DNA of 64,000 bases from Terriglobia bacterium. Its GTDB lineage: Bacteria > Acidobacteriota > Terriglobia > 20CM-2-55-15. The position numbers and the translations under genes were made by a program. The number at the start of each line of letters is the position of its first letter. Positions within the stretch are counted from its first letter, which is position 1. Shown in pieces: positions 7,335-64,000 of this stretch. Below the pieces are notes generated by a model. That model ran no database searches. It saw nothing but the letters and a program-made list of their open reading frames with translations, and was not told where the DNA came from. The DNA lies in contig OZ252023.1 of assembly GCA_965247425.1 (NCBI GenBank), forward strand, positions 1,242,917-1,306,916, read 5' to 3'.

Positions 7335-7547
7335 TCGCGATTTGAAACGCTGTTGCCAAAAGCGTACAGTGGGTCGCGTGGCCGTGACGTCGTCGTAAGT
7401 TGCCAGATGCCTGGCCATTCAGGGGATTCCCTCTGATCAGCGGCTCGAGATCGTGCGGTTGTTCGGATGGGTCAGCGAACCGAGGAGTTTGGTTTCCCGT
7501 TGTCTTACCAGAGAATCACTTCCCAACGAAGCGGTGTTCCTTTGTGC

Positions 7548-9773
7548 GGCATGGTGGAGAGCTTCGGCCACACCGGCGTGTCGGCTGCCATCGTGCTTCT
7601 TTGTTCCTTCGCCTTGTCCGGGAATGGGGGCGCCCAGGCCCACCTGCCCCCCGAATACGAAGATCGCCGAATCGTTGAAGCGATCCTGCTGGGTGAGAAT
7701 GAATCCATCGACCTGGACGGTTTGCTGGACGAGGCCGTGTGGGATCGGGCAATTCCTGCTGTCGGTTTCATGCAGCAGGATCCCGACAACGGCAGCCCGG
7801 CCACGGAACCGACCGAGGTGCGCGTCGTGTATGGCGGAACGAGCTTGTATCTGGGGATCCTCTGTCTAGACTCGGATCCGGCGGCGCTGCTGGGCAACCA
7901 GATGCAACGGGACCAGCCGTTGGAGGCCGACGATCGCTTTATGTGGGCGATGGATCCGTTCCTCGACGAACGAAGTGGATATTTCTTCGAGATCAATCCG
8001 TCGGGGGCGATGGGAGACGGTTTGATCAATGTGTCCCCCGGGGGCGGCTTCCGAGCCAACAAAGCTTGGGACGGGATCTGGACCGCCAGGGTCCGACGGA
8101 CGGACATCGGGTGGCAGGCCGAGATCGAGATTCCGTTCGCTACGCTGAATTTCGATCCGAACGTCTCAGCCTGGGGCGTGAACTTCCAACGGACCGTCCG
8201 ACGGAAGAACGAAGAAAGCCGCTGGAACGGGTACTCGCGGAACCAGGGATTGATGCAGATGAGCGCAGCGGGTCTCGTGGTCGGACTCGAGGAACTCGAC
8301 CAAGGCCTGGGTCTCGAGCTGAAGCCCTACCTGACGGGCAGCATCACCGACGGGCCGGTCTCGGGCGCCGCCCCGGTTTACCGGGGTGACGCGGGTTTCG
8401 ATCTCTCTTACAGCGTGACGCCTGAACTTCGAGCCAAGTTCACGTTGAACACGGATTTCGCCGAAATCGAAGTTGACGATCGCCGGATCAACCTCACGCG
8501 TTTCCCGCTCCGGTTCCCCGAGAAACGTGATTTTTTCCTGGATGGGTCCAACTTTTTCGATCTTTCGACGGCTGGCGTTACGCCGTTCTTCAGCCGCCGA
8601 ATCGGTCTCGACGCGGACGGTAACCCGCAACGAATTGTGTATGGAGTGAAGCTCACGGGCAAGGTCGGCGCCCAGGACATCGGTGTGTTGCAAGTACGAA
8701 CGGCCGATTCCGGCAACAATTCGGGAGAAGACTTTTCAATCGTTCGCCTGAAACGCCCCTTCTGGGCAGAGTCTCATGTCGCGATGATCTATACGCGACG
8801 ATCTCGGCTGGTGACGGGCGCGGCTGTTCTCCAGACGGCGGGTGCGGAAATTCAACTCTCGACCAGCCGCTTCGCTGGGGACCGCAACCTGTCTCTTACC
8901 GGATTCTACTTCTGGAACACCACGCCCGAGGGAGGCGGCAACGGAGCTGCCCGCGGCTTCCGCCTCCACTACCCGAACGACACCTGGCAGCTGAACCTCT
9001 CAGTCCGCGAGCTGCAAGACAATTTCGATCCTGCAGTGGGATTCACGCCGCGTCGCGGTTTCCGGCGTGCGAACCCGGAGGCGTTCTTCGCGCCTCGGCC
9101 GTCCGACCATCCCTGGATCCGACGATTCAGGTTTGGATCCGACGCACAGTTTTTGATGGACACCAAAAACCGTCTGGTTACACGCATCTTTGACGTGACG
9201 GTATTCGAGATGGAGTTGCATTCACAAGACACTTTTCTCTTCAAGGCTGTCCCCAGCTTTGAACGGCTTGAAAGGGATTTCGAAATCAGCCCGGGTGTGG
9301 TTTTGTTTGAAGGCGCCCAGTACAACTTCACCAGATACAGCGTGGAGATCGACAGCGCCGATCGTCGAAAAGTGGCAGCCTCCGCCGTACTGGAATGGGG
9401 CAACTTCTTCTCCGGAACGCGCCGTGAGTTTTCTCTGGACCTCAGGATCCGACCCCGTCCCGGCCTCTTTGCCAGCGTCGGCGGGGAATTCAATCGGGTA
9501 GAACTGCCCGAAGGAAATTTCTCGACAAGCCTTGTTCGATCCGAGCTCAACACGCAGTTCGGACCGTGGGTCTCGCTTGCTAACCGATTGCAGTACGACA
9601 CGGTCAGCCGGAACATCGGCTGGCAGGCTCGATTCCGGTGGATTCTGAAACCCGGGAACGACATCTTTCTCGTCCTGAATCAGAATTGGGTCGACAATCC
9701 TCTCCTGCCGGACAGAATCCAGACCTTGAACCGTCAGCTTTCCAGCAAGCTGGTGTTCACACGTCGGTTCTAG
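7548..9773 (+). CDS. Secreted DUF5916 / CBM9-like-domain protein (predicted outer-membrane or hydrolase-associated family)
   Basis: Signal peptide MVESFGHTGVSAAIVLLCSFALSG. CBM9-like N-terminal block (DGLLDEAVWDRAIPAVGFMQQDPDNGSP...). Beta-rich C-terminal region. The longer ORF from nt 7467 is an alternative start. Confidence 0.5.
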   Translation, partial: GMVESFGHTGVSAAIVLLCSFALSGNGGAQAHLPPEYEDRRIVEAILLGENESIDLDGLLDEAVWDRAIPAVGFMQQDPDNGSPATEPTEVRVVYGGTSLYLGILCLDSDPAALLGNQMQRDQPLEADDRFMWAMDPFLDERSGYFFEINPSGAMGDGLINVSPGGGFRANKAWDGIWTARVRRTDIGWQAEIEIPFATLNFDPNVSAWGVNFQRTVRRKNEESRWNGYSRNQGLMQMSAAGLVVGLEELDQGLGLELKPYLTGSITDGPVSGAAPVYRGDAGFDLSYSVTPELRAKFTLNTDFAEIEVDDRRINLTRFPLRFPEKRDFFLDGSNFFDLSTAGVTPFFSRRIGLDADGNPQRIVYGVKLTGKVGAQDIGVLQVRTADSGNNSGEDFSIVRLKRPFWAESHVAMIYTRRSRLVTGAAVLQTAGAEIQLSTSRFAGDRNLSLTGFYFWNTTPEGGGNGAARGFRLHYPNDTWQLNLSVRELQDNFDPAVGFTPRRGFRRANPEAFFAPRPSDHPWIRRFRFGSDAQFLMDTKNRLVTRIFDVTVFEMELHSQDTFLFKAVPSFERLERDFEISPGVVLFEGAQYNFTRYSVEIDSADRRKVAASAVLEWGNFFSGTRREFSLDLRIRPRPGLFASVGGEFNRVELPEGNFSTSLVRSELNTQFGPWVSLANRLQYDTVSRNIGWQARFRWILKPGNDIFLVLNQNWVDNPLLPDRIQTLNRQLSSKLVFTRRF

Positions 9774-16163: not shown

Positions 16164-17780
16164 ATGTCGTCGAGAACCAAGTTGATCGCGCTAGCCGTTG
16201 TCGCCGTCATGTTGCCGACAATGATTCTCTCGGTGATTCAGTATCGCTCGTTGCTCCAGCTTCAGAGCACGACGAAGCTGGCGGCTCAGGAGAGTCTGAG
16301 ACAAGTGTTGTACGGCCTGTCGGGCCGGGCCGAAGAAGAGTTGACCTGGATCGCCGAGCAAGCCCTCGGAACCCTCGACACCGAGTCTCTGTCCAGGGAA
16401 AACATTCTGGAACTCGAGAGGCACTTCGAGGCGGTTCGGACGGCGAATCCGGCAATCGACAGGCTCTTCCTTTCCTTCGTGTGTGGCTGCGAGAGTTTCG
16501 GTGTGGTCACCTCCGCGAACGGAAGCCGAAGGTTCGAGAACGAGAGAGCGGCCAGGAGGCTCGAAGTGGTCCAGGTTCAGGACCTGTTCGAAAGTGCCCG
16601 CACGGACGCCTATCCGGACGGACGGGTGGGCAGAGACTTTCTGTTCGCACACCTGTCCGATTGCAGAGGGCCATCCTGCCGTCAGGGCGACGATTTTGAA
16701 ACATATGTGTTCTACCCTTTGATCAATCAGGGTGGGGAAGAACTGGGCTTCGCGGCCATGTCGCTGAAAACGAAATACATCACCGATGAGCTGTTCGCCC
16801 GCGTTCTACCGGCAAAGCTTGATCGCGACCTGGCCATCGGGATCTTCGATGAGAACCATTCCGAACTCTATGCCACCCAGAAGGCACGTCAGACGTGGGA
16901 AGTCACCGTGCCCCTGGCACCCGTGTTTCCCCGGTGGAGCCTGGGAGCAGGCTTCAGGAACACGACGATCGAGGGCGCGGCGCAGCAGCAGTTCCAGGAG
17001 AGCCTGGCCCTGTCCTTGTTCGTTCTGTCATTGCTGGTTCTGGGCATTATCCTGACGCTCCGTGCGACAGCTCGAGAGATCCGGCTTGCCGAAGCCAAGT
17101 CCACTTTTGTGTCGAATGTCTCCCACGAACTGAAAACTCCCCTGGCCCTGATCCGGCTGTTTGCAGAGACGCTTGAACTGGGGCGCGTGCGGTCGTCGGA
17201 CAAGGCGCATGAATACTATCGAATCATCAGCAACGAAAGCAGACGACTGACGCAGTTGATCAACAATATCCTGGACTTTTCACGAATCGAAGCCGGTCGC
17301 AAAGAGTATCAGTTTGAAACGACCGATGTCGCCCAGGTCGTGCGGGAAGTCGTCGAGACGTATCAGTATCCCCTTGAAAACGCCGGTTTCAAAATAGTCA
17401 CCGTAATTGAATCCGACCTCCCGCCCGTCAAGATCGACCGGGATGCGATGTCGCAAGCCGTCCTCAACCTGGTGAACAATGCCGTCAAGTACTCCGCTGA
17501 GATCAAACGGATCGACATCCGCGTACGTTCAGCCGAGGGCCACATCGCCGTTGAGGTGGCCGACCAGGGCATCGGCATTCAAACCTCCGAACAGGAGAAG
17601 ATTTTCGAAAAATTTTACCGGATCAGTACCGGTCTGGTGCATGACCGGAAGGGGAGCGGTCTGGGCCTGGCCCTGGTCGACCATATCGTCAAGGCCCATC
17701 GTGGCGAGATTGTCGTAGAGAGCAAGCTGGGCAAGGGGAGCCGTTTTACCGTCCTGATTCCGCTGGCCGCTGACGGCTAA
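16164..17780 (+). CDS. Sensor histidine kinase (two transmembrane helices, a periplasmic sensor domain, HisKA and HATPase_c)
   Basis: H-box SNVSHELKTPLA. N, G1 and G2 boxes (NAVKYS, DQGIGI, GSGLGLALV). Confidence 0.85.
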   Translation: MSSRTKLIALAVVAVMLPTMILSVIQYRSLLQLQSTTKLAAQESLRQVLYGLSGRAEEELTWIAEQALGTLDTESLSRENILELERHFEAVRTANPAIDRLFLSFVCGCESFGVVTSANGSRRFENERAARRLEVVQVQDLFESARTDAYPDGRVGRDFLFAHLSDCRGPSCRQGDDFETYVFYPLINQGGEELGFAAMSLKTKYITDELFARVLPAKLDRDLAIGIFDENHSELYATQKARQTWEVTVPLAPVFPRWSLGAGFRNTTIEGAAQQQFQESLALSLFVLSLLVLGIILTLRATAREIRLAEAKSTFVSNVSHELKTPLALIRLFAETLELGRVRSSDKAHEYYRIISNESRRLTQLINNILDFSRIEAGRKEYQFETTDVAQVVREVVETYQYPLENAGFKIVTVIESDLPPVKIDRDAMSQAVLNLVNNAVKYSAEIKRIDIRVRSAEGHIAVEVADQGIGIQTSEQEKIFEKFYRISTGLVHDRKGSGLGLALVDHIVKAHRGEIVVESKLGKGSRFTVLIPLAADG

Positions 17781-18051
17781 GCAGCCTGTGGCGGGACTCT
17801 TGAGGGTCGCGCGCAGGGGGATTCGGGTTTCAGGCGCGAAGAGAGGAGCGGAGCGATGCTTTGTCATCGTGACCGACGAACGACAAAGCCTGAGACCCGA
17901 AGACCCCTGCGCCCGACGGGTTACGACGGCATCGGGTCATCTGCGGCGTTGCCACTCATCATCGATGGGTAGCATCGACGTCGTCGTGGCGCCGGATATC
18001 TGGCCCGATGACGCTCGTAACGCGACCCTCGAGAGTTCCGCCACAGGCTGC
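17781..18051. repeat. MITE-like element family 1, copy A (271 bp, roughly 31-bp terminal inverted repeats gcagcc(t/c)gtgg...gggtcgcg)
   Basis: Starts immediately after the histidine-kinase stop codon and ends 25 nt before the response-regulator start. About 85% identical to the copies at 49206-49520 and 51740-52011. Confidence 0.8.
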
Positions 18052-18075
18052 TAATAAATGGAGGAAGAGAAGCCA

Positions 18076-42435: not shown

Positions 42436-42535
42436 AATCCGCACCCTGTCCGAACCCAAACAGCAAAGCCCGGGATCGCTCCTTTCTGCTTCTAAACGGG
42501 GCTGACGAGATTCGAACTCGCGACCTCCGGCCTGA
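42436..42535 (-). repeat. tRNA 3'-end-like repeat, copy 1 (T-arm GCGAG-TTCGAAT-CTCGT plus acceptor strand CAGCCCC-G on the minus strand); no 5' half found
   Basis: Minus-strand gcgagttcgaatctcgtcagccccg at + coordinates 42497-42521. The roughly 100-bp block is repeated at 59614-59705. No complementary acceptor strand (cagcccc on +) was found within 400 nt, so this is not a complete tRNA or tmRNA. Confidence 0.55.
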
Positions 42536-47130: not shown

Positions 47131-49206
47131 ATGAGACCGAAGCCCTTCAAAATCCGGTACGGCGAGCGGTTACCCGCGGGTGCAACAGGCGGCGTGGGCG
47201 GCGTCAATTTCTCCGTCTTCAGCCGGCACGCGAGCGCGATGTCCCTGCTACTGTATTCCGACGACCAGTCTCTCGATCCGATTCAGGTGATCGACCTGGA
47301 CCCTGTCGGAAACCGCACACACTTCTTCTGGCATGTCTTTGTCGAAGGAGCAGGTCCCGGCCTGTACTTTACCTGGCGGGCGGGCGGACCCGGTGACACT
47401 CGAGCGACCGGGTTTCGCTTTGACGCCCGACACGAGCTTCTGGATCCATGGGCCAGGGTCGTGAGCGACGCGCTGTGGAATCGGAGTCGAGCAACAGCCG
47501 GTGGAAGTGGCCGGAATGCCATTCGTGGCAAAGTCGACGACGACGCCTATGACTGGGAGGGGGACCTGACGGTGGACCACCCCGTCGAGGACAGCATAAT
47601 CTACGAAGTGCATGTGGGTGGTTTCACCAGCCATCCATCGGCCCGCGTCCGAAACCCGGGAACCTTCCACGCTCTGATCGACAAAATCCCCTACCTCGAA
47701 CGGTTGGGCATCACCGACGTCGAGTTGATGCCCGTCATGGCTTTCGATCGACAGGATGTGCCACCCGCCGCAGCGGCAAAAGGCCTCTCGAACTTCTGGG
47801 GTTACAGCCCCTACGGATTTTTCGCCCTCCATCCCGCCTACTGTTCCACCGCGGACGGTCGAAAGGAATTCCGCGACATGGTGAAAGCGCTGCACCGCGC
47901 CGGCATCGGTGTGATCCTGGACGTGGTGTTCAACCACACGGCTGAAGGGGGGGAGGATGGTCCCTCCATCCATTTCAAAGGCCTCGCCAACGAAACCTTC
48001 TATCACCTCGATTCCGGTGACCGGAGGAAGTATCGTGATTTCACGGGATGCGGCAACACGGTCAATTGCAATCATCCCGTGGTCACGCATTTTCTGTTGT
48101 CGTGTCTGGAATACTGGGTCCGGGAGATGCACGTGGACGGCTTCCGCTTCGATCTGGCGAGTGTGCTGGGACGGGGTGAGGACGGGGAGCCCATGTACCA
48201 TGCGCCGCTGATCTGGGCGATCGAGTTCTCCGAGGTACTATCCCACACCAAGCTGATCGCCGAGGCTTGGGACGCCGGAGGGCTTTACCAGGTCGGGGAC
48301 TTCCCTGGATTTCGCTTCATGGAATGGAATGGGCAATACCGGGACACTGTGCGGCGTGTCGTGCGTGGCGAGAACGGACTGATGAACGAACTCGCCTCCC
48401 GAGTGAGCGGGAGCAGCGATTACCACAAAGAAAAAGGCAAGCTTCCAACCAACAGCATCAACTATGTGACCTGCCATGATGGATTCACGCTCTACGACCT
48501 GGTCAGCTACGACAGGAAGCACAATCAGAACAACGGGGAAGACAATAGGGACGGACCCGCCGAATCCTTCAGTTGGAATTGTGGGCACGAGGGTCCCACC
48601 GACGATCCGCAAATCGAGTCGCTGCGTGGCCGTCAAGCACGGAACCATATGGCCATACTGCTCTTGAGCCTCGGCTTGCCGATGTTGCTGGCTGGCGATG
48701 AGGTTCTGAGGACCCAGCGTGGCAACAACAACTGTTACTGCCAGGATAACGAGTTGAGCTGGTTCGATTGGACGCCCACCGACAGTAACGCCGGCATGCT
48801 TCGCTTCACCCGGGAAATGATCGCCCTGCGCAAGCGGCACGCGTCTTTGCGACGGAGCCGATTCCTTACCGGTCGGCCGACTGCGGGAAGAGCCGGAATG
48901 CCGGACATCGAATGGCACGGAGCTCGACTCGGCGACCCGGAATGGGACAATCCCGAATCACGGATGCTGGCCTACACACTTGCCGGGATAGAACAGGACG
49001 AACCGGACATTTACGTGATGCTCAATATGTCACCCGAAGGCAGAGAGATGGCAATTCCCGCAGTCCCAGGGCGGAAATGGCATCGGGCCGTGGACACGTC
49101 GCGGATCTCGCCTGAGGACATCGTCGTGCCAGCGGAGCAGACGCCGTTAGGCTCGCATGCCTACTACGTCGCCGGGAGAACGGTCGCGGTCCTCGAATCG
49201 CGCTAG
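47131..49206 (+). CDS. glgX: Glycogen debranching enzyme (isoamylase, GH13)
   Basis: ...GVNFSVFSRHA..., GH13 catalytic blocks (GVILDVVFNHT, GFRFDLASVL, EAWD). ATG 47131 was chosen; the track ORF starts at 47062. Confidence 0.85.
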   Translation: MRPKPFKIRYGERLPAGATGGVGGVNFSVFSRHASAMSLLLYSDDQSLDPIQVIDLDPVGNRTHFFWHVFVEGAGPGLYFTWRAGGPGDTRATGFRFDARHELLDPWARVVSDALWNRSRATAGGSGRNAIRGKVDDDAYDWEGDLTVDHPVEDSIIYEVHVGGFTSHPSARVRNPGTFHALIDKIPYLERLGITDVELMPVMAFDRQDVPPAAAAKGLSNFWGYSPYGFFALHPAYCSTADGRKEFRDMVKALHRAGIGVILDVVFNHTAEGGEDGPSIHFKGLANETFYHLDSGDRRKYRDFTGCGNTVNCNHPVVTHFLLSCLEYWVREMHVDGFRFDLASVLGRGEDGEPMYHAPLIWAIEFSEVLSHTKLIAEAWDAGGLYQVGDFPGFRFMEWNGQYRDTVRRVVRGENGLMNELASRVSGSSDYHKEKGKLPTNSINYVTCHDGFTLYDLVSYDRKHNQNNGEDNRDGPAESFSWNCGHEGPTDDPQIESLRGRQARNHMAILLLSLGLPMLLAGDEVLRTQRGNNNCYCQDNELSWFDWTPTDSNAGMLRFTREMIALRKRHASLRRSRFLTGRPTAGRAGMPDIEWHGARLGDPEWDNPESRMLAYTLAGIEQDEPDIYVMLNMSPEGREMAIPAVPGRKWHRAVDTSRISPEDIVVPAEQTPLGSHAYYVAGRTVAVLESR

Positions 49207-49520
49207 CAGCCCGTGGTGGAAGTCTGTAGGGTCGCGCGCAGGGGTATTCGGGGCTCAGGCGCGAAATGAGGAGCGGAACGATGCATAGTCCTCGTGACCG
49301 ACGAATGACAAAGCCTGTGGCCCAAAGACCCCTGCGCCCTTCGGGTTACGACGGCATGGGGCCAGCTGCGGCGTTGGCACTCCTAGATCGATGGCGAGCA
49401 TCGCCGTCTTCGATGGGAACCATCGCCGTCTTCGATGGGCACATCGACGTCGTCGTGCCGCCTTGCATCTAGCCCCATGGCGCTCGTAACGCGACCCTAC
49501 CGACTTCCACCACGGGCTGC
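49206..49520. repeat. MITE-like element family 1, copy B (315 bp; contains an internal roughly 20-bp tandem duplication)
   Basis: Terminal inverted repeats gcagcccgtggtggaagtctgtagggtcgcg / cgcgaccctaccgacttccaccacgggctgc. It begins at the G of the glgX stop codon and ends 13 nt before the glgB stop. Confidence 0.8.
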
Positions 49521-49532
49521 TTGGAGCCTCGA

Positions 49533-51710: not shown

Positions 51711-51739
51711 AACCTCAACATGCTATCAAAATAGGCCTA

Positions 51740-52011
51740 GCAGCCCGTGGTGGAAGTCTGTAGGGTCGCGTTATGAGCGCCATGGGGCTAGATGCCAGGC
51801 GCCACGACGAAGTCGATGCTCTTCATCGATCTAGGAGTGGCAACGCCGCAGCTGGCCCCATGCCGTCGTAACCCGTAGGGCGCAGGGGTCTTCGGGCCAC
51901 AGGCTTTGTCATTCGTCGGTCACTATGACAGAGCATCGTTCCGCTCCTCATTTCGCGCCTGAGACCCGAATACCCCTGCGCGCGACCCTACAGACTTCCA
52001 CCACGGGCTGC
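51740..52011. repeat. MITE-like element family 1, copy C (272 bp), in inverted orientation relative to copy B
   Basis: Reverse complement of copy B with a few substitutions. Together with copy B it flanks glgB. Confidence 0.8.
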
Positions 52012-52014
52012 TGG

Positions 52015-52102
52015 GAGTCTGCGCGGCAGAAGGGATCTACTCCAAATTTGCATGTTAGCAGCAACAGCTGCAAATGTTAGATTCAGACCCGCGCAGGCTC
52101 CT
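52015..52102. repeat. Partial or degenerate copy of MITE-like family 2 (left arm gagtctgcgcggcagaagggatc, right arm cccgcgcaggctcct)
   Basis: Directly adjacent to family-1 copy C, giving nested or juxtaposed elements. Confidence 0.5.
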
Positions 52103-57716: not shown

Positions 57717-59300
57717 TTATATCCTTGGCCCAGCCGACCTTACCGCTTCGCCCACGCCCTGCGCATAGCTGGCAAAGTTGTCTCGGAAAAGAGTAGCGAG
57801 CTTTTTCGCAGTCCTGTCGAAATCGGCGGGATCGGTCCAGGTCTTACGGGGAATCAGGACCTCGTCGGGAACGCCCGGGCAGGCGGTGACAACGGAGTAC
57901 CCGAAAACCGGATCCTCTTCAACCCTCGAGTCGGCTAACGCTCCCGAATGGATGGCATCGATGATCGCCCGGGTGAACGCAAGCTTGATCCGCGATCCGG
58001 TGCCGTAGGCGCCGCCACTCCAGCCCGTGTTGACGAGCCACACGTTGGCCTGATGCGTGCGGAGTTTCTCTGCGAGCAGTTCAGCATATTTCCCTGGATG
58101 CCATACGAGGAAGGGACCCGCAAAGCACGGTGAAAACGTAGCCTGCGGTTCGGTTACCCCCACTTCCGTTCCCGCAACCTTCGCGGTATAGCCGCTGATG
58201 AAGTGGTACATCGCCTGTTCCGGAGTCAGGCGACCGACGGGCGGCAGGACACCGAATGCGTCGCACGTCAGGAAGATGACATCCGAGGGGTGGCCCGCGA
58301 CGCATGGGATCCGGGCATTCTGAATGAACTCGATCGGGTAGGCGCCTCGTGTGTTTTCAGTAATCGAGATGTCGCTGAAATTGACAGCGTGGTCGGTTTC
58401 GTCGTACGTGACGTTCTCCAGCACGGCCCCAAAACGGAGAGCACTGAAGATGTCCGGCTCGAGCTCCGGGGTCAGGTAGATGGCTTTTGCGTAGCAGCCG
58501 CCCTCGATGTTGAAGATGCCGTTGTCGGTCCAGCAGTGCTCGTCGTCGCCAATCAGGTTTCGTTTGGGGTCCGCCGACAGCGTGGTCTTTCCCGTTCCGG
58601 ACAGACCAAACAGCACGGATGAACGTCCGGTCTCTTTGTCCGAGGTTGCAGAACAATGCATCGAAAGCACGCCGCGCTTGGGCATGAAGTAATTCATCAG
58701 GGTCAGGACCCCCTTCTTCATTTCTCCCGCGTACTCGGTGCCGAGGATCACCATCTCGCGGCTTTCGAGATTGACGTCGACGCTGGTTTTAGACGTCATA
58801 CCGGTCGTGTGCCGGTTTGCCGGGAATCGACCGGCGTTGAAGATGACGGCGTCTGGTTCGCCGAAGTCCTGGAGTTCTTCGCGTGTGGGACGAATCAGCA
58901 TCGTGTACATGAACAGTGCGTGATACGGTCGCGTGCATATGATCCGAACTTTCATTCGGTAATCCAGGTCCCACCCGGCAAACGCGTCCACCACGTAGAG
59001 CAGGCTTCGGGTGTTCAGATAGTCGGTGGCCCGTTCCCGATTCACGCCAAATGTAGCTTCCGGTATCTCAATGTTCACGGGTCCCCACCAGACGTCGTCC
59101 TCGGAGTCCGGATGTCGGACGACATGTTTGTCCCTGGGCGACCTGCCCGTCTTTACCCCGGAGTAGGCAATCAGTGCACCGGAACTGGCGATCACGGAGT
59201 CCTTTTCCATCCGAAGAGCGTCTTGATAGAGGATCGGCGGCGTCTGATTGCGCCGAACGTCGGTCACGGTGATGCCGTATTGACTCAGATCTAGTGCCAT
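57717..59300 (-). CDS. pckA: Phosphoenolpyruvate carboxykinase (ATP)
   Basis: Kinase-1a FGLSGTGKTTLS and a PEPCK-ATP pattern throughout. SD AGAGGAG then ATG at 59300; the track ORF extends to 59360. Confidence 0.9.
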   Translation of the reverse strand: MALDLSQYGITVTDVRRNQTPPILYQDALRMEKDSVIASSGALIAYSGVKTGRSPRDKHVVRHPDSEDDVWWGPVNIEIPEATFGVNRERATDYLNTRSLLYVVDAFAGWDLDYRMKVRIICTRPYHALFMYTMLIRPTREELQDFGEPDAVIFNAGRFPANRHTTGMTSKTSVDVNLESREMVILGTEYAGEMKKGVLTLMNYFMPKRGVLSMHCSATSDKETGRSSVLFGLSGTGKTTLSADPKRNLIGDDEHCWTDNGIFNIEGGCYAKAIYLTPELEPDIFSALRFGAVLENVTYDETDHAVNFSDISITENTRGAYPIEFIQNARIPCVAGHPSDVIFLTCDAFGVLPPVGRLTPEQAMYHFISGYTAKVAGTEVGVTEPQATFSPCFAGPFLVWHPGKYAELLAEKLRTHQANVWLVNTGWSGGAYGTGSRIKLAFTRAIIDAIHSGALADSRVEEDPVFGYSVVTACPGVPDEVLIPRKTWTDPADFDRTAKKLATLFRDNFASYAQGVGEAVRSAGPRI

Positions 59301-59613
59301 TGTTCTCCTCTTGGTTTCCAACCGCGCGGTTCCGACTGAACCGGCCCCAAACACGGACAACTACAGTCCGGGAAGTCGTGCGCCGCGGACCGGCCGACCG
59401 TGCTTCTCGGTCGCCCTGTTTTGGGGAAAACTGGTCAATTGCTACGGCAGCGAACTAGATACTACGGCAGCAAACGGTTGGGGTCAACGAACTCGCGGTC
59501 GACCGAGAAATGAGGTGTGTCCCGGTTCGCGCCGAAGAGCCAGGCTGTTGATCCTCGAACCAGATCACTGGCGAGCACAAATCCGGTGGACTCAAAGATT
59601 CGATCCCCCACCC

Positions 59614-59705
59614 AATCCGCACCACACAGCAAAGCCCGGAATCGCTCCCGGGCTTTCTTCTAAACGGGGCCGATGAGATTCGAACTCGCGACCCTCCAGT
59701 CCGGC
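59614..59705 (-). repeat. tRNA 3'-end-like repeat, copy 2 (degenerate T-stem), with an adjacent perfect 9-bp-stem hairpin (59631-59656)
   Basis: Minus-strand gcgagttcgaatctcatcggccccg at + coordinates 59665-59689. Direct repeat of copy 1 (about 85% over roughly 90 bp). It lies 210 bp upstream of the tyrosine recombinase. Confidence 0.55.
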
Positions 59706-59915
59706 CCATCGTTTCGAAACACGCAGTCGTCACCGCCTGTGGCGTCATGTCCTGCTGGCGCTACTTGCCATTCCACTTCTCCGAGTAGGCGGTTAGAACG
59801 AAGCGGCCTACGCCTGCGGCTTGGCGCGCGGACGCTTCGCGTGGCTTGACTGCGACGTAAAGCTAAATGAGGTGAGAGAGCAAAAGTAAAATGTGGGTCA
59901 TAAGGAGGCCACCCT

Positions 59916-60798
59916 ATGACCCACTTGAAGCAGCGGATGCTGGAGGAACTCCAGCGCCGCAACTACAGCGAGAGTACCATCCGGGGCTACCTGCGGGTAG
60001 TGGCGGATTTCGCCAAGTATTTCAGCACCTCACCGGACCAACTCGGAGGCGAACACCTCCGGCAATATCACCTGCATCTGATCCAGGAACGGAAACTTTC
60101 CACGGGAACGGTACAGGTCTACATATCGGCGCTACGTTTCTTCTATGTGAAGACGCTGAAGCGTCCGGAACCGGAACTGGACCTGCTGAATCCGAAACGG
60201 GCCAAACGGTTACCGGTCGTGTTGAGTCGGGACGAGGTTGCGTCCTTGATTGGGGCGGCCAGGGATCTGTTCGAACACACGATCTTGTGGCTGTGCTATG
60301 TCACCGCGGTGCGCCGAGGAGAACTCTGTCGGTTGACGGTGGATCATATCGACAGCGCTCGCATGATGATCTTGGTGCGTGTCGGTAAGGGCCGTCGCGA
60401 TCGGAATCTACCGATCGACTCCAGACAGCTTCAACTGCTCCGGGACTATTGGTGTTGGAAGCGACCTCCAAAGTATCTGTTTCCGGGTGGATTCAATCAC
60501 AACCACTTCGATCAGCCCATCCACTCCAAAAACCGTTTGGAGCATCGTGCATTCGGCGGCCGCAGGCGCAGGCATCAAGAAACGCGTTTCACCCCACACG
60601 CTACGACACAGCCGTGCGACTCATGGGCTGGAAGCCGGTGTCGACCTGCCAACCATTCAGCGTCTGCTGGGCCATACCCGACTCGAACACACCATGGTCT
60701 ATCTGCATCTGTCGGACCGACACCTGCGGGCCCGTACCGAACCGCTCGAGGTGATCCCGGACTTTGGATGGCGGAAGCCTTTGAGGCCGAGATCATGA
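59916..60798 (+). CDS. Tyrosine recombinase (phage-integrase family) associated with IS91; 1-nt frameshift in an A5 run
   Basis: N-terminal SAM-like domain ([26 protein letters not shown]...). The catalytic C-terminus ([38 protein letters not shown]) is in the +1 frame from about nt 60529 (ccaaaaacc); removing one A joins the two parts. Confidence 0.75.
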
Positions 60799-61997
60799 GC
60801 CGCCCGAACGTGGAGGTGGCCGACATCTTTCGTGCCGCCGGAAACCACTACCTGGAGAGTTGCCGCCAGTTCACCGACCGCCAACAGCGCAAGGTCATGC
60901 GTGCCATCACCGGTTGCCGCACCGCCGCGCTGGGCGGTCATATCGACGTGTGCACCGGTTGCGGCGAGGAAACGGGGCTATCGTTCAACTCGTGCCGTGA
61001 CCGCCATTGTCCCAAGTGTCAGGCTCAGGCCCGCCAACGATGGTTGGAAGCGCGCCAGAGTGAGTTGCTTCCCATTCCGTATTTCCACGTCGTGTTCACT
61101 CTGCCCCATCAGTTGCATCCGCTGATCCGCCGCAACCAGGCCGCACTCTACACCGTGATGTTTCGCACCGTGGCCGCGACCCTGAAGGAAGTGGCCGCCA
61201 ATCCGAAACGTCTCGGCGCTCAGATTGGCTTCTTCGCTATCCTCCACACCTGGAGTCAGAATCTGTTGTTTCATCCCCATCTCCACTGTGTGGTTCCTGC
61301 CGGCGGTCTCGATGCCGACCACACGCGCTGGGTCCAGGGATCAAAGAAGTTCCTGTTGCCCATTCCCGTACTCCGCGACGTGTTCCGTGGCAAGTTCGTC
61401 GATGCTCTCGAGGCTGCCTTCGACAACAACGAACTCCGCTTTTCCGGATCCATTCAGTTCCTCAAACTCCCGCGCTGCTTTCGCGCCCTGATCCGCAGCA
61501 TCCATACCCACCATTGGGTCGTCTATGTCAAACCTCCCTTCGGTGGGCCCAAACAGGTGCTCCGTTACCTGGGCCGCTACACCCACCGGGTCGCCATCTC
61601 CAATCATCGATTGATTTCCTTTGATGACAACCAGGTCCAGTTTCACTGGAGGGATTACCGCAATGGCAACACGACACGCAAAATGACACTCACTGCCGAA
61701 GAGTTCATCCGGCGTTTCCTCTTGCATGTGTTACCGAAACGCTTCGTCCGCATTCGCTATTTCGGCATCATGGCCAATGCGCACCGCAAGCCCTTGCTCG
61801 CGCTCTGCCGAGAGTTCTTGTCCCCGGTCCAACAACCTTCAGAGAAAGCCATCCCTGAACCATCCACTCTGACAACGAATTCCACTTGGACCTGTCCGAG
61901 TTGTGGTGGGCTCATCCGGATCCTCGAACGACTATCCGCACTCCAAATCGCTTTACGAGAGAGACGATCACTGTGTACCGCTTTCAATACGTCATAG
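60795..61997 (+). CDS. IS91-family transposase (HUH Y2 rolling-circle type, zinc-binding N-terminus)
   Basis: ATG overlapping the integrase stop (ATGA). CxxC...CxxC zinc-binding region ([10 protein letters not shown]...[10 protein letters not shown]). HUH-like motif LHCVVPAGG. Conserved [13 protein letters not shown] and RIRYFG blocks typical of IS91, IS801 and IS1294. Confidence 0.85.
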
Positions 61998-62436
61998 CGC
62001 ACGAAGAACAATCCCAACACACGGGCCTATTCACACAGGCCGACGCACCGGTGCGTTTACAGACAGAAGATGGACCCCCCAACGGATTTTTCGCCCCCCT
62101 ATGTCACTTGAAAGTCTCTTTTTCTCTCCATTGTCGGCACCCAGGCTCGACCCCTCATCCTGCCAGAGCCCCAACTTCAGCTCGATATCGACCCCTCGGA
62201 GCCTACCTTCTCCATAGCCCTACCATGCCTGCCTGATTCCGGCCCCTTCCTTCAAACTTCGTTATCGGAATTGCCCGGTCCGTGGGTTTTCGCCCGATCC
62301 TGCAACCGGGTCGACGCCGGGCAATTCCGATCAACACTAGCGGTTAACCAACCGACTGGTTGTTTGATTGACCCCAACTCCCGCCTTTCGTATCATCTAC
62401 GGAGTTTTTCACGGACCGCCCAAGAGACACTAAACG

Positions 62437-62925
62437 ATGCAACCTGGCACGCAGCTTGGCCACTACGAGATCCAATCCGCCCTCGGCAAGGGTGGGATGG
62501 GCGAAGTGTGGCGTGCGCGGGATCAGAAACTCGGTCGTGAAGTTGCCATCAAGACGCTTCCTGAAGAGTTCGCAAAGGATACTGATCGCCTCTCACGGTT
62601 CGAACGCGAAGTCAAGGCCGTCAGCAGCCTGAACCATCCTCATATCTTCACTTTTCAAGGCGTTTGCGAAGTTCGACCGAGGCTCGCCGCTCTGCAATAT
62701 CGGATGCCTTTTGAGGCTACGGGGAGCATGGCTCAAAAACACCCTGACGAAAAGCATTGTGAGCTCTCTTTCAATGCCTCCCGCTACAGCGGAGTTACGA
62801 CCACGTTTGACGCGCAGACGGGGTTGAAAGCAGAATTTAATCTTTTTGGCTGCGTAAGTACTGAATTTGGAGCCTTCTACAAGAAGTCGCGTGTCCGTCT
62901 CCGTGGGTGTTTCATCGCCTCCTGA
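62437..62925 (+). pseudogene. Ser/Thr protein kinase N-terminal fragment (ATP-binding lobe only)
   Basis: LGHYEIQSALGKGGMGEVWRARDQKLGREVAIKTL...LNHPHI matches kinase subdomains I-IV, then kinase similarity is lost. Confidence 0.55.
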
Positions 62926-63407
62926 CCGTGATTGGTTGGTGGAGGTCCTCGGTCCTGCCGATGCCGCAAAAGCGTGCGGGCTTTCTTGAAGTCAGGCCCG
63001 GAGTCGAGCCAGAACGATTTAAGGATGACAGTTTTGAAAACGCCGCTATAACCGGAATATTGCAAGTAGATTCCGACGCATTTGAAACGCTTCGCAGTCA
63101 GGTGGCTGATGCTTTTAATCACGGCCGGGGGGTGTCAGTAAAGGTTGCACTCATTGGGCAATCATTGCCCGAGAAGGAGGGCCGCTTCTTCTTGGACGAT
63201 ATTGATGTGTCGGTCCGTCGGACCTATGCCGTCAGCCACTTCGAGATCAACACCGGCGGCCCCAATGATTTGCTTCGTGACTTTCTTATAGAGCCTGAGC
63301 AAGATGAGGGAAAAGGCACCAGCATTTCAATCAAACTCCTGAAGGCAGTCCGCCGGTATTCTTCCTTCATCTGTTCGATGCCTCCAAAGCTGCGGATCGC
63401 GGCATGA
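62907..63407 (+). CDS. Hypothetical protein
   Basis: 166-aa ORF overlapping the end of the kinase fragment. No family recognised. Confidence 0.2.
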   Translation: MFHRLLTVIGWWRSSVLPMPQKRAGFLEVRPGVEPERFKDDSFENAAITGILQVDSDAFETLRSQVADAFNHGRGVSVKVALIGQSLPEKEGRFFLDDIDVSVRRTYAVSHFEINTGGPNDLLRDFLIEPEQDEGKGTSISIKLLKAVRRYSSFICSMPPKLRIAA

Positions 63408-63538
63408 CGCGCCTCTTCCGGCGTCATGCCCTTCGAGACGTTCTCTTCCTCCTGCATCTCCAGATGGAAACGCAGTTCATCACTCATCTCCTTTTCGAGG
63501 CCGCGTCTTCGAAAGACACCGAACAGACGCGAGGTCAT
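63224..63538 (-). pseudogene. N-terminal fragment of an ADOP/MacB-like permease (cytoplasmic prefix region only)
   Basis: MTSRLFGVFRRRGLEKEMSDELRFHLEMQEEENVSKGMTPEEARHAAIRSFGGIEQMKEEYR matches the permease-prefix found on many ADOP proteins. No transmembrane region follows. Confidence 0.55.
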
Positions 63539-64000
63539 GATGTGAAGCCATTGTCATCGATTCGAAAGCCCCAGACCCCACACGGTCGGGCGCGCTACGG
63601 GGGCCATTCAGTCAGCCCGAAGTGTGATCATCGGATCGACTTTCATGGCCCTGCGGGTTTGACATAACACCCACACGACGACATTGTCCGAGCGGTCATA
63701 AGCCGCAGACCCTGCTTGAATCGCTTATCCGCGGCAGGCCTCGGTATGGTGTCTGTGGCCACAGAAGCCTTGGTGGACTTTGGCGAGCAGGCGGTCCCGG
63801 TGCTCCTTGAAGTGGTGACTCCGGAAAACCGCCGAGGCAAAGCCACCACCGCGTGATGGCCCTCAGGTTCATCGTCGAGAGAGCCGGGACGAATCCGCTT
63901 TCGGCGGGCACGTTCGAAGAGATCCGGAGCGTAATCGAGCGGCTCCTGACCACAGGGACGGATCGGCTCGGCACAGGCAGGCTGTTGCGGATGGCCTTCG

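Follow-up and report, generated by a model that had tools for sequence, protein, structure and literature searches.

An integrase-carrying IS91-family insertion sequence, very probably in decay, in the chromosome of a Terriglobia bacterium

The insertion sequence (IS) IS91 of Escherichia coli plasmids, about 1.8 kb long, encodes an HUH/Y2 transposase with an N-terminal zinc domain, carries subterminal palindromes at its ends and inserts beside a short specific oligonucleotide (CTTG, GTTC or CTCG) without target duplication. Its upstream gene, orf121, encodes a 121-aa protein, and its stop codon overlaps the start of the transposase gene tnpA as ATGA (locus L084 in the present comparison). In the presence of Orf121, transposition is lower and the ter end is recognised more precisely (PMC13181058). 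The element considered here is found in a stretch of 64,000 nucleotides from a Terriglobia bacterium (assembly GCA_965247425.1, contig OZ252023.1, positions 1,242,917 to 1,306,916 of the forward strand), which is referred to as the window and numbered from its first letter. Positions 59791-62346 (2,556 bp, both junction pentanucleotides counted) very probably represent one chromosomal copy of an integrase-carrying IS91-family insertion sequence that is decaying, with the kinase and permease gene fragments found on its right resulting from separate events.

The group to which this element belongs shares with IS91 the zinc domain and HUH/Y2 transposase, the ATGA overlap between its two genes, the subterminal palindromes and a short specific junction oligonucleotide without target duplication. 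However, the window transposase is only 23% identical to that of IS91, the upstream gene of the group encodes a tyrosine recombinase of about 295 aa, the elements are 2.5 kb long, and the junction word is GACNW or GGTTA. The preliminary description of this DNA had expected ends of the CTTG or GTTC type; GGTTA was found in the window instead, and GACNW in most relatives. Additionally, the flanks of the group show a wider consensus, and the oligonucleotide may be carried by the end downstream of the transposase gene and not, as in IS91, by the other one. The ISCR elements are distant HUH/Y2 relatives that are thought to be rolling-circle movers capturing adjacent genes, and we know of none with a recombinase partner. 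The window transposase reaches 18.8 bits on the profile of ISCR clade Ia (NF052416), against a cut-off of 925, and is thus no ISCR transposase.

The two-gene architecture itself is already on record. Some IS91-family insertion sequences known from ISfinder and TnPedia, such as ISAzo26, ISMno23, ISSde12, ISSod25 and ISWz1, carry an integrase. In RefSeq, a 'tyrosine-type recombinase/integrase' gene followed by an 'IS91 family transposase' gene is annotated on the plasmids pRL10 of Rhizobium johnstonii 3841 and pSmeRU11d of Sinorhizobium meliloti, the products being 42-43% (recombinase) and 51% (transposase) identical to the window proteins. However, the two rhizobial genes lie 6-7 nt apart with no overlap and the right end lacks the GACNW motif, whereas the window element is part of a large Acidobacteriota radiation with its nearest full-length relatives at about 65%. 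A survey of tyrosine recombinases, with ISfinder BLAST among its annotation sources, assigned the recombinases 'found in IS91 and IS3 transposons' to an integron-like subgroup (bioRxiv 10.1101/542381). The statement in the preliminary description that integrase-carrying members are described yet little studied agrees with these records, since, as far as found, the literature holds no experimental study of the architecture. The element belongs to a kind already on record, and its family-level features, although worth a specialist look, leave this classification unchanged.

Genes and ends of the element

A scan of reference genomes matched 295 relatives, and 80 loci, almost all from metagenome-assembled genomes (MAGs) of Acidobacteriota (Bryobacterales, Terriglobia and others), were retrieved for comparison; L-numbers designate such related loci compared with the element at 59791-62346. 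At least 549 further relatives were matched in a metagenome scan, and none among the matches listed was closer than 65%. By protein, the nearest relatives are L042 (76%, a 5'-truncated copy) and, at full length and 60-65%, L002 and L087 onwards. A repeat search of the window found no further copy of the element. The transposase was aligned with those of IS91 itself (L084), IS91-family elements from Pseudomonas (L085) and E. coli (L086) plasmids, a rhizobial relative and three acidobacterial relatives (alignment A1), and the frame-repaired recombinase with five relatives and E. coli XerD (alignment A2). Element ends were set from identical multi-copy relatives and then carried over to the window by motif. 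The element comprises the following features.

59791..59795, plus strand: left-junction pentanucleotide GGTTA (ends of multi-copy relatives, motif transfer)
59796..59915, plus strand: left end, non-coding, starting GAACGAAGC, with subterminal palindromes (left-end motif in more than 90 relatives)
59893..59924, plus strand: hairpin GTGGGTCATA / TATGACCCAC, with the Shine-Dalgarno sequence in its loop and the ATG in its 3' arm (13-pair stem by scan)
59916..60521, plus strand: N-terminal part of the tyrosine recombinase, residues 1-202, with Arg133 and Lys158 (PF13495; PF00589 positions 3-130; relatives align to residues 1-202; A2)
60522..60522, plus strand: extra base, one of the two C at 60521-60522, giving a +1 frameshift (relatives join in frame; same base in L001)
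60523..60798, plus strand: C-terminal part of the tyrosine recombinase in the next frame, with His227, Arg230, His253 and Tyr262, ending at TGA 60796-60798 (PF00589 positions 103-171, E 7e-18; A2)
59916..61997, plus strand: mechanical fusion open reading frame (ORF) of 693 aa (ORF list; public gene call)
60795..61997, plus strand: IS91-family HUH/Y2 transposase, 400 aa, intact (Pfam, NF033538, A1)
61998..62341, plus strand: right end, non-coding, ending ...TCCGATCAACACTAGC (inverted repeats, fold, right-end motif in relatives)
62342..62346, plus strand: right-junction pentanucleotide GGTTA, palindromic with the flank GGTTAACC (motif transfer, L042)

The transposase covers the Pfam profiles Zn_Tnp_IS91 (E 6e-30, positions 1-90 of 90) and Y2_Tnp (E 2e-63, positions 1-180 of 183) and scores 444.7 bits on the IS91 equivalog NF033538, well above the cut-off of 125. 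The HUH motif H160-P-H162-L-H164 (HPHxH), the catalytic tyrosines Y258 and Y262 (YLGRY, a YxxxY motif) and the zinc-domain cysteines 53, 56, 72 and 75 are invariant in A1, and a C-terminal CxxC is kept too. These matches and catalytic residues bear out the IS91-family transposase with an upstream tyrosine recombinase that had been proposed for this locus. A strong negative GC skew (-0.18 to -0.29) marks the transposase gene and right end at 61000-62500, the flanks being near 0.

The recombinase gene is found directly upstream of the transposase gene in nearly all 80 loci, as on the rhizobial plasmids, and the more alike two transposases are, the more alike their recombinases tend to be (r = 0.77 between pairwise identities, 53 unique pairs). 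In the window, the recombinase TGA (60796-60798) overlaps the transposase ATG (60795-60797) as ATGA (60795-60798), the overlap reported in the preliminary description, and a GAGG lies 8 nt 5' of this ATG. When the stop-start geometry was scored over 83 related integrase-transposase pairs, the ATGA overlap was present in 71, and in nine more the stop directly abutted the ATG. Therefore, given the correlated identities, the co-location and the conserved overlap, recombinase and transposase have long been inherited as a unit, and translational coupling, as predicted from this gene geometry, is a conserved trait of the integrase-IS91 group. The coupling that had been claimed for the window itself holds for the family but is broken in this copy, because ribosomes starting at 59916 never meet the TGA in their own frame.

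A second element of possible control lies at the recombinase start codon. The Shine-Dalgarno sequence of the integrase gene, AGGAGG, is enclosed in the loop of the hairpin at 59893-59924, and an equivalent hairpin is present in most relatives, its 5' arm changing from CAC to CAT where the start codon changes from GTG to ATG, which is a covariation. The folds have a mean z of -2.7; of 52 sequences, 65% have every base of the start codon paired. The hairpin probably exerts translational control on the recombinase and, via coupling, on the transposase.

The recombinase had been read as one ORF ending at this TGA; in fact, its two halves lie in different frames. The N-terminal part, two thirds of the protein, comprises the SAM-like domain (Phage_int_SAM_4) and the first half of the catalytic domain, and the remaining third sits in a small ORF at 60379-60798. 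Among the 80 loci, the counterpart of residue 202 runs straight into residue 1 of the C-terminal part in the same frame, and a codon-wise reading places the fault at cag ccc atc [c] act cca aaa acc, with the surplus C at 60521-60522. Removal of this base restores a normal tyrosine recombinase of 293 aa, in which R133, K158, H227, R230, H253 and Y262 are invariant in A2. The catalytic set R-K-H-R-H/W-Y is therefore not found in one polypeptide, its six residues being split over two frames, and the gene is a tyrosine recombinase by descent that is not intact. Since the frameshift falls between K158 and H227, the latter in the His-x-x-Arg motif, no complete recombinase can be made from the window copy.

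The 693-aa mechanical ORF (59916-61997) consists of the N-terminal recombinase part, 88 out-of-frame residues and the whole transposase, with Pfam matches to the SAM-like integrase N-domain (residues 6-84), Phage_integrase (103-228), Zn_Tnp_IS91 (304-396) and Y2_Tnp (438-623). It exists because the first frame happens to stay open past the frameshift, and a public assembly annotates it as one gene with five Pfam domains. No single-frame recombinase-transposase fusion was found in any relative among the 80 loci and 83 pairs. This ORF is an artefact of decay and not a natural fusion gene.

The boundaries of the family are best defined by L005, L006 and L007, three 100%-identical copies in one MAG that have exactly 2,499 bp in common between unrelated flanks, and other multi-copy sets agree. 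On the left, the family begins with GACNW GAACGAAGCCGC followed by GC-rich palindromes, and the motif G[AG]AC[GT]AAGCCGC with GC-rich hairpins is conserved in more than 90 relatives. On the right, it ends with ...TCCGA-N(5-9)-CTA[AG]C GACNW, preceded by a long inverted repeat and an inverted left-end-like stretch. The window follows this layout, with GGTTA GAACGAAGC... from 59791 and ...TCCGATCAACACTAGC GGTTA to 62346; the element thus ends about 94 nt short of position 62440, where its end had previously been placed. The right end of the window contains a 15-bp perfect inverted repeat (62264-62278 / 62317-62331, 38-nt loop), its single-stranded DNA folds more stably than shuffled sequences (z = -5.1 on the plus strand, -3.9 on the minus strand), an inverted left-end-like stretch also lies within 61998-62341, and L042, the closest relative, has the same right end. 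The fold energy of the window left end is not significant on its own (z = -0.85). Subterminal palindromes, as in IS91, are thus present at both ends, and the transposase gene and both ends of the window copy still look intact from their sequence.

The pentanucleotides fall into classes, GAC in most relatives, GGT in the window, L090 and the right ends of L042 and L136, and CGT in L110, L126, L015 and L053, the minor lineages having GGTWW or CGTNA. Among 45 independent insertions, on which the junction and flank statistics rest, bases 1-3 are always equal at both ends of an element, i.e. they covary, and positions 4-5 differ between the ends in 22. A 5-bp target duplication is thereby ruled out, since positions 4-5 differ in about half of the insertions and positions 1-3 never do. 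A specific junction oligonucleotide without target duplication is accordingly present in the relatives, whereas the window alone, with GGTTA twice, does not discriminate. As judged from the junctions, the pentanucleotide fits the pattern of IS91, in which the oligonucleotide would lie inside the element at one end and in the target at the other, the word here being different and longer; the left pentanucleotide either stems from the target or makes up the element's own first five bases.

Several integrase-IS91 elements carry, precisely at their left tip, a group II intron (Rfam RF02001, 118-137 bits) that contains a maturase ORF and stands in antisense orientation, just past the left-end hairpin on the bottom strand. 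Such introns were found in L045 (2991-5026), L012, L003 and L047 and, by junction sequence, also in L101, L106, L117, L139 and L162. In L045 and L048, intron and IS have moved together as one 4.5-kb unit, and other bases stand where the left pentanucleotide is expected. These composites suggest that the left pentanucleotide comes from the target, in which case the right end would carry it, a mirror image of IS91. The constant right end and longer variable left of L045, L046 and L048 had been considered as one-ended transposition, a candidate rejected since the extra DNA is the group II intron with its maturase.

Other arrangements were observed at the ends of relatives. The right end of L060 (about 7520-7700) carries a tandem array of ever shorter right-end fragments, each ending GACTT (...CACTTCCGATGAACGCTAACGACTT / CCGATGAACGCTAACGACTT / GAACGCTAACGACTT...), which looks like repeated cleavage and rejoining at the end, and L002 has a smaller version. 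In L108 (left junction) and L151 (right junction), a right end, one pentanucleotide and a left end abut without intervening DNA, which represents either head-to-tail tandem copies or an assembled circle junction. The L108 and L151 junctions, the L060 array and the kinase fragment that the window has in common with L042 are footprints hinting at rolling-circle or one-ended transposition. Two or three elements of different lineages, with GAC-type and CGT-type ends, lie within 13 kb in L015, L053, L072, L081 and L031, and in L015, L053 and L072 two elements stand head-to-head, with a palindromic spacer of about 35-45 nt between their left ends.

Target sites and gene fragments to the right

The flanks of the 45 insertions are non-random, with a consensus CGa.TaGCC directly on the left and ..CGg.A on the right, about 14 positions being informative. 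The window flanks fit it (CCACTTCTCCGAGTAGGC and GGTTA on the left, GGTTA and ACCAACCGACTGG on the right), and in L035 both flank halves stand around a single GACAA with no element (AACTTCCGAGATGGC GACAA ACCGTCAAGGTGGATTGC). That the flank motif is an abundant repeat of the repetitive extragenic palindromic (REP) kind was rejected, as it is rare in 840 kb of loci. Three features lie to the right of the element.

62368..62396, plus strand: promoter-like site for the kinase gene (TTGACC, 17 nt, TATCAT), outside the element (10/12 matches)
62437..62667, plus strand: Ser/Thr kinase gene cut after about 76 codons (Pfam, NCBIfam, comparison with L042)
63224..63538, minus strand: fragment of permease prefix domain 1, in an ORF of 104 aa that no permease body follows (NF038403, positions 2-59 of 59, 71.9 bits, cut-off 30)

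The kinase fragment matches positions 1-73 of 263 of the Pkinase profile, about the first 80 residues of kinases of at least 560 aa, and the mechanical ORF continues to 62925 without kinase similarity. The permease prefix ORF has no Pfam match and was recognised by NF038403 only. These profile matches confirm the two fragments on opposite strands that had been noted previously. The tail at 62600-64000 has no paralogue in the window or in all loci, and about 550 nt (62670-63220) are without a detectable relative.

The preliminary description attributed both fragments to a one-ended, rolling-circle-type transposition that dragged or truncated the neighbouring DNA, which finds no support here. 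Between the element and the break in the kinase gene lie about 320 nt, including a promoter and a start codon that are both intact; the element therefore did not cut this gene. The promoter-like site starts 22 nt from the right end, and the same GATTGACCCCAACTCC also precedes the full-length kinase paralogue of L042 (3322-5940). In addition, full-length Ser/Thr kinase genes (849-950 aa) lie 49-166 nt 3' of the right end in L067 (2938-5797), L069 (7653-10217) and L072 (7558-10209), which belong to different lineages. Altogether, a kinase gene stands directly downstream of the right end in five of about 39 insertions (the window, L042, L067, L069 and L072), which suggests, from sequence context, that in Acidobacteriota the elements prefer to land ahead of kinase promoters. 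Because three relatives sit upstream of full-length kinases, target preference explains the kinase adjacency better than one-ended transposition does. In the favoured scenario, elements inserted repeatedly ahead of kinase promoters and erosion followed independently; the window element would have landed about 20 nt upstream of a Ser/Thr kinase promoter, at a position that the group has apparently used repeatedly.

It is also conceivable, though unlikely, that element and kinase fragment travel as one, after an ancestral copy overran its end and captured the promoter and the first 80-90 kinase codons before the enlarged unit moved. L042, from another MAG, matches the window from within the transposase gene, over the right end and the promoter, to about kinase codon 76 (window 61002-62650 and L042 6007-7690, 73% nucleotide identity), homology ends beyond that point, no synteny was found on either side of the match, and the L042 kinase copy is also truncated (95-aa ORF). 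Moreover, if the right end were ter-like, as the intron composites hint, read-through would go rightwards. However, the full-length kinases next to L067, L069 and L072, of other lineages, indicate a repeated landing site, and the full-length paralogue of L042 has the same promoter with no element upstream, only a stretch resembling a right end and pentanucleotide. The truncation points also differ (about codon 76 in the window, about codon 90 in L042), paralogous kinase N-termini are about 70% identical anyway, and the same data are accounted for by an old insertion that passed to both lineages and later eroded. Furthermore, the DNA that one-ended transposition of IS91 mobilises lies past the end on the upstream side of the transposase gene, not on its downstream side (PMC13181058).

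Role and decay of the recombinase

By extension from IS91 (PMC13181058), the transposase would nick one strand at sequence-specific ends with subterminal hairpins, the element would then move by a replicative single-strand circle route, and insertion would take place next to a short specific oligonucleotide without target duplication. Since its gene is translationally coupled to the transposase gene and has co-evolved with it, the recombinase most likely serves as an accessory or partner of the transposase, for which the coupled Orf121 of IS91 offers the analogy. Like the integron integrases (IntI) and Xer recombinases, the repaired protein has a SAM-like N-domain and the R-K-H-R-H-Y set. Its best NCBIfam matches are to XerA/integron-integrase, XerC, XerD and integron-integrase subfamily models, all below the curated cut-offs: 155.5 against 335 bits for XerC, 154.1 against 330 for XerD and 193.7 against 220 for XerA, and, for integron integrases, 153.7 against 265 on TIGR02249 and 106.3 against 435 on NF011946. 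The TIGR02249 match comes in two stretches, which fits the absence of the IntI-specific insertion in IS91-associated recombinases (bioRxiv 10.1101/542381). In addition, unlike in IntI and Xer systems, no attC array or dif site is involved for the window element.

A more far-reaching and distinctly improbable reading is that the integrase-IS91 elements form a mechanistically distinct, site-selective class, in which the HUH/Y2 transposase and the integron-integrase-like recombinase would act on the same hairpin-plus-pentanucleotide sites and whose preferred targets would be defined by a semi-conserved motif, sites shortly before Ser/Thr kinase promoters of Acidobacteriota among them. For example, the transposase may produce a single-stranded circle and the recombinase may recombine the folded single-stranded ends, as integron integrases do with attC. 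The coupling, the co-evolution, the covarying pentanucleotide, the roughly 14 informative flank positions, the unoccupied look-alike sites and the introns at the left tip are all compatible with such a class.

The decay of the window copy is supported by a second haplotype. L001, a metagenome contig in ENA and the sole match of an exact-protein look-up, encodes exactly the same 693-aa product and is 100% identical to the window over 57988-62359, and its right flank, beyond an extra IS, is 98.5% identical. This extra IS is a 1,908-bp DDE element flanked by a 9-bp duplication of window 62351-62359. It occupies L001 4374-6281, comprises a DUF6788 ORF and a DDE_Tnp_1 transposase, and lies 5 nt beyond the IS91-like right end. 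The window has no DDE element at 62351-62359, but a 254-bp end fragment of the same IS is found at 2399-2652 (99.6% identical). L001 is thus a distinct haplotype with the same extra base, and this argues for a mutation in a common ancestor and not for a random read error. The sequence comparison therefore argues for a frameshift that is real rather than a read error, a systematic error being possible.

That the element is fully functional, with the frameshift either introduced in sequencing or assembly or used as a programmed +1 ribosomal shift to tune the amount of recombinase, appears highly unlikely. Programmed frameshifting is common in other IS families (IS1, IS3), the shift lies in a short C run beside an A5 run (ccatccactccaaaaacc), a context prone to long-read errors, and the coverage of the L001 contig is only about 4.6x, going by its name. 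However, the same extra base occurs in two assemblies of different haplotypes, with and without the 1.9-kb IS at 62351-62359, and the recombinase is kept in a single frame in most relatives, so frameshifting is no family trait: an intact ORF of 295-329 aa was counted in at least 59 of the 83 pairs, an undercount, since stop-abutting pairs were mis-scored and some genes are cut by contig ends. Different and clearly degenerative lesions hit the same gene elsewhere (L003, L010, L033 and L049 degenerate differently; L008 and L020 carry insertions). Programmed frameshifting is unlikely because relatives keep the recombinase in one frame, several with different lesions. In addition, programmed frameshifts of IS are -1 and fuse two genes, whereas this one is +1 and falls inside one domain.

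Several observations weigh against reading the element as a decaying copy with the ends and mode of movement set out above. The first left palindrome of the window is about 14 nt longer than the family consensus (by eye, against L090 and the consensus), so that the window copy may be immobile for that reason too. The window ends were transferred from relatives with at most 76% (partial) or 65% (full-length) protein identity, with no second copy in the same genome, and L045/46/48 and L065/66 share 6-8 nt beyond the right pentanucleotide, which leaves the exact cut positions uncertain by up to about 8 nt. Ori and ter may lie in the IS91-like or in the mirror-image order. A crude alignment test for mimicry of the element's own right end by the left flank gave a weak result (p = 0.015, no lineage specificity).

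Left-hand neighbourhood and meaning of the finding

To the left of the element lie pckA and a glycogen gene cluster. A piece resembling a tRNA 3' half, with a terminator hairpin, is found at 59657-59697 on the minus strand, about 95 nt left of the element, and is repeated at 42489-42525. The two pieces are the cores, similar to a tRNA 3' half (T-arm and acceptor), of a 93-nt repeat (42439-42528 and 59620-59711, minus strand; 83% identical) in which a terminator hairpin comes next, both copies being intergenic and beside housekeeping genes. No tRNA, tmRNA or Rfam family was detected beside the recombinase at gathering thresholds or E <= 1, and no complete tRNA or Rfam family was detected anywhere in the window.

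Although integrases beside tRNA remnants are typical of islands and the tRNA-like piece is repeated and close, the chance that a tRNA-targeting integrated island had this recombinase as its integrase, with the IS91 transposase as mere cargo or neighbour, is practically negligible: recombinase and transposase move jointly in units of 2.5 kb that have conserved ends of their own, the tRNA-like piece is external to these units, housekeeping genes (glycogen gene cluster, pckA, permease) occupy the interval between its two copies, a full tRNA was not detected in the window, and the recombinase is of the simple Xer/integron-like type and not of the phage type or that of integrative and conjugative elements (NCBIfam; bioRxiv 10.1101/542381). 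The tRNA-like repeat was not read as an island border because it is outside the element and has housekeeping DNA between its copies. Three repeats of about 240-320 bp resembling miniature inverted-repeat transposable elements, with 32-35-nt terminal inverted repeats (AGCAGCCCGTGGTGGAAGTCTGTAGGGTCGCG), were also observed in the window (17780-18052, 49205-49521 and 51736-52015), two of them flanking glgB in inverted orientation.

As a single, partly dead IS, the window copy itself matters little, and the 693-aa "recombinase-transposase fusion" produced by gene callers should not spread as a new domain architecture. The gain lies at the family level, where the ends, pentanucleotide, flank consensus and coupling provide a usable definition of a large and essentially unstudied Acidobacteriota branch of IS91. 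Such a definition helps the annotation of soil MAGs, in which 2.5-kb repeats break assemblies, many metagenome contigs being exactly one element long. It also makes tractable the question of what a conserved, coupled Xer/integron-like recombinase does for a rolling-circle transposase, and raises a second one, namely whether kinase genes are expressed differently when an element has landed just ahead of their promoters.

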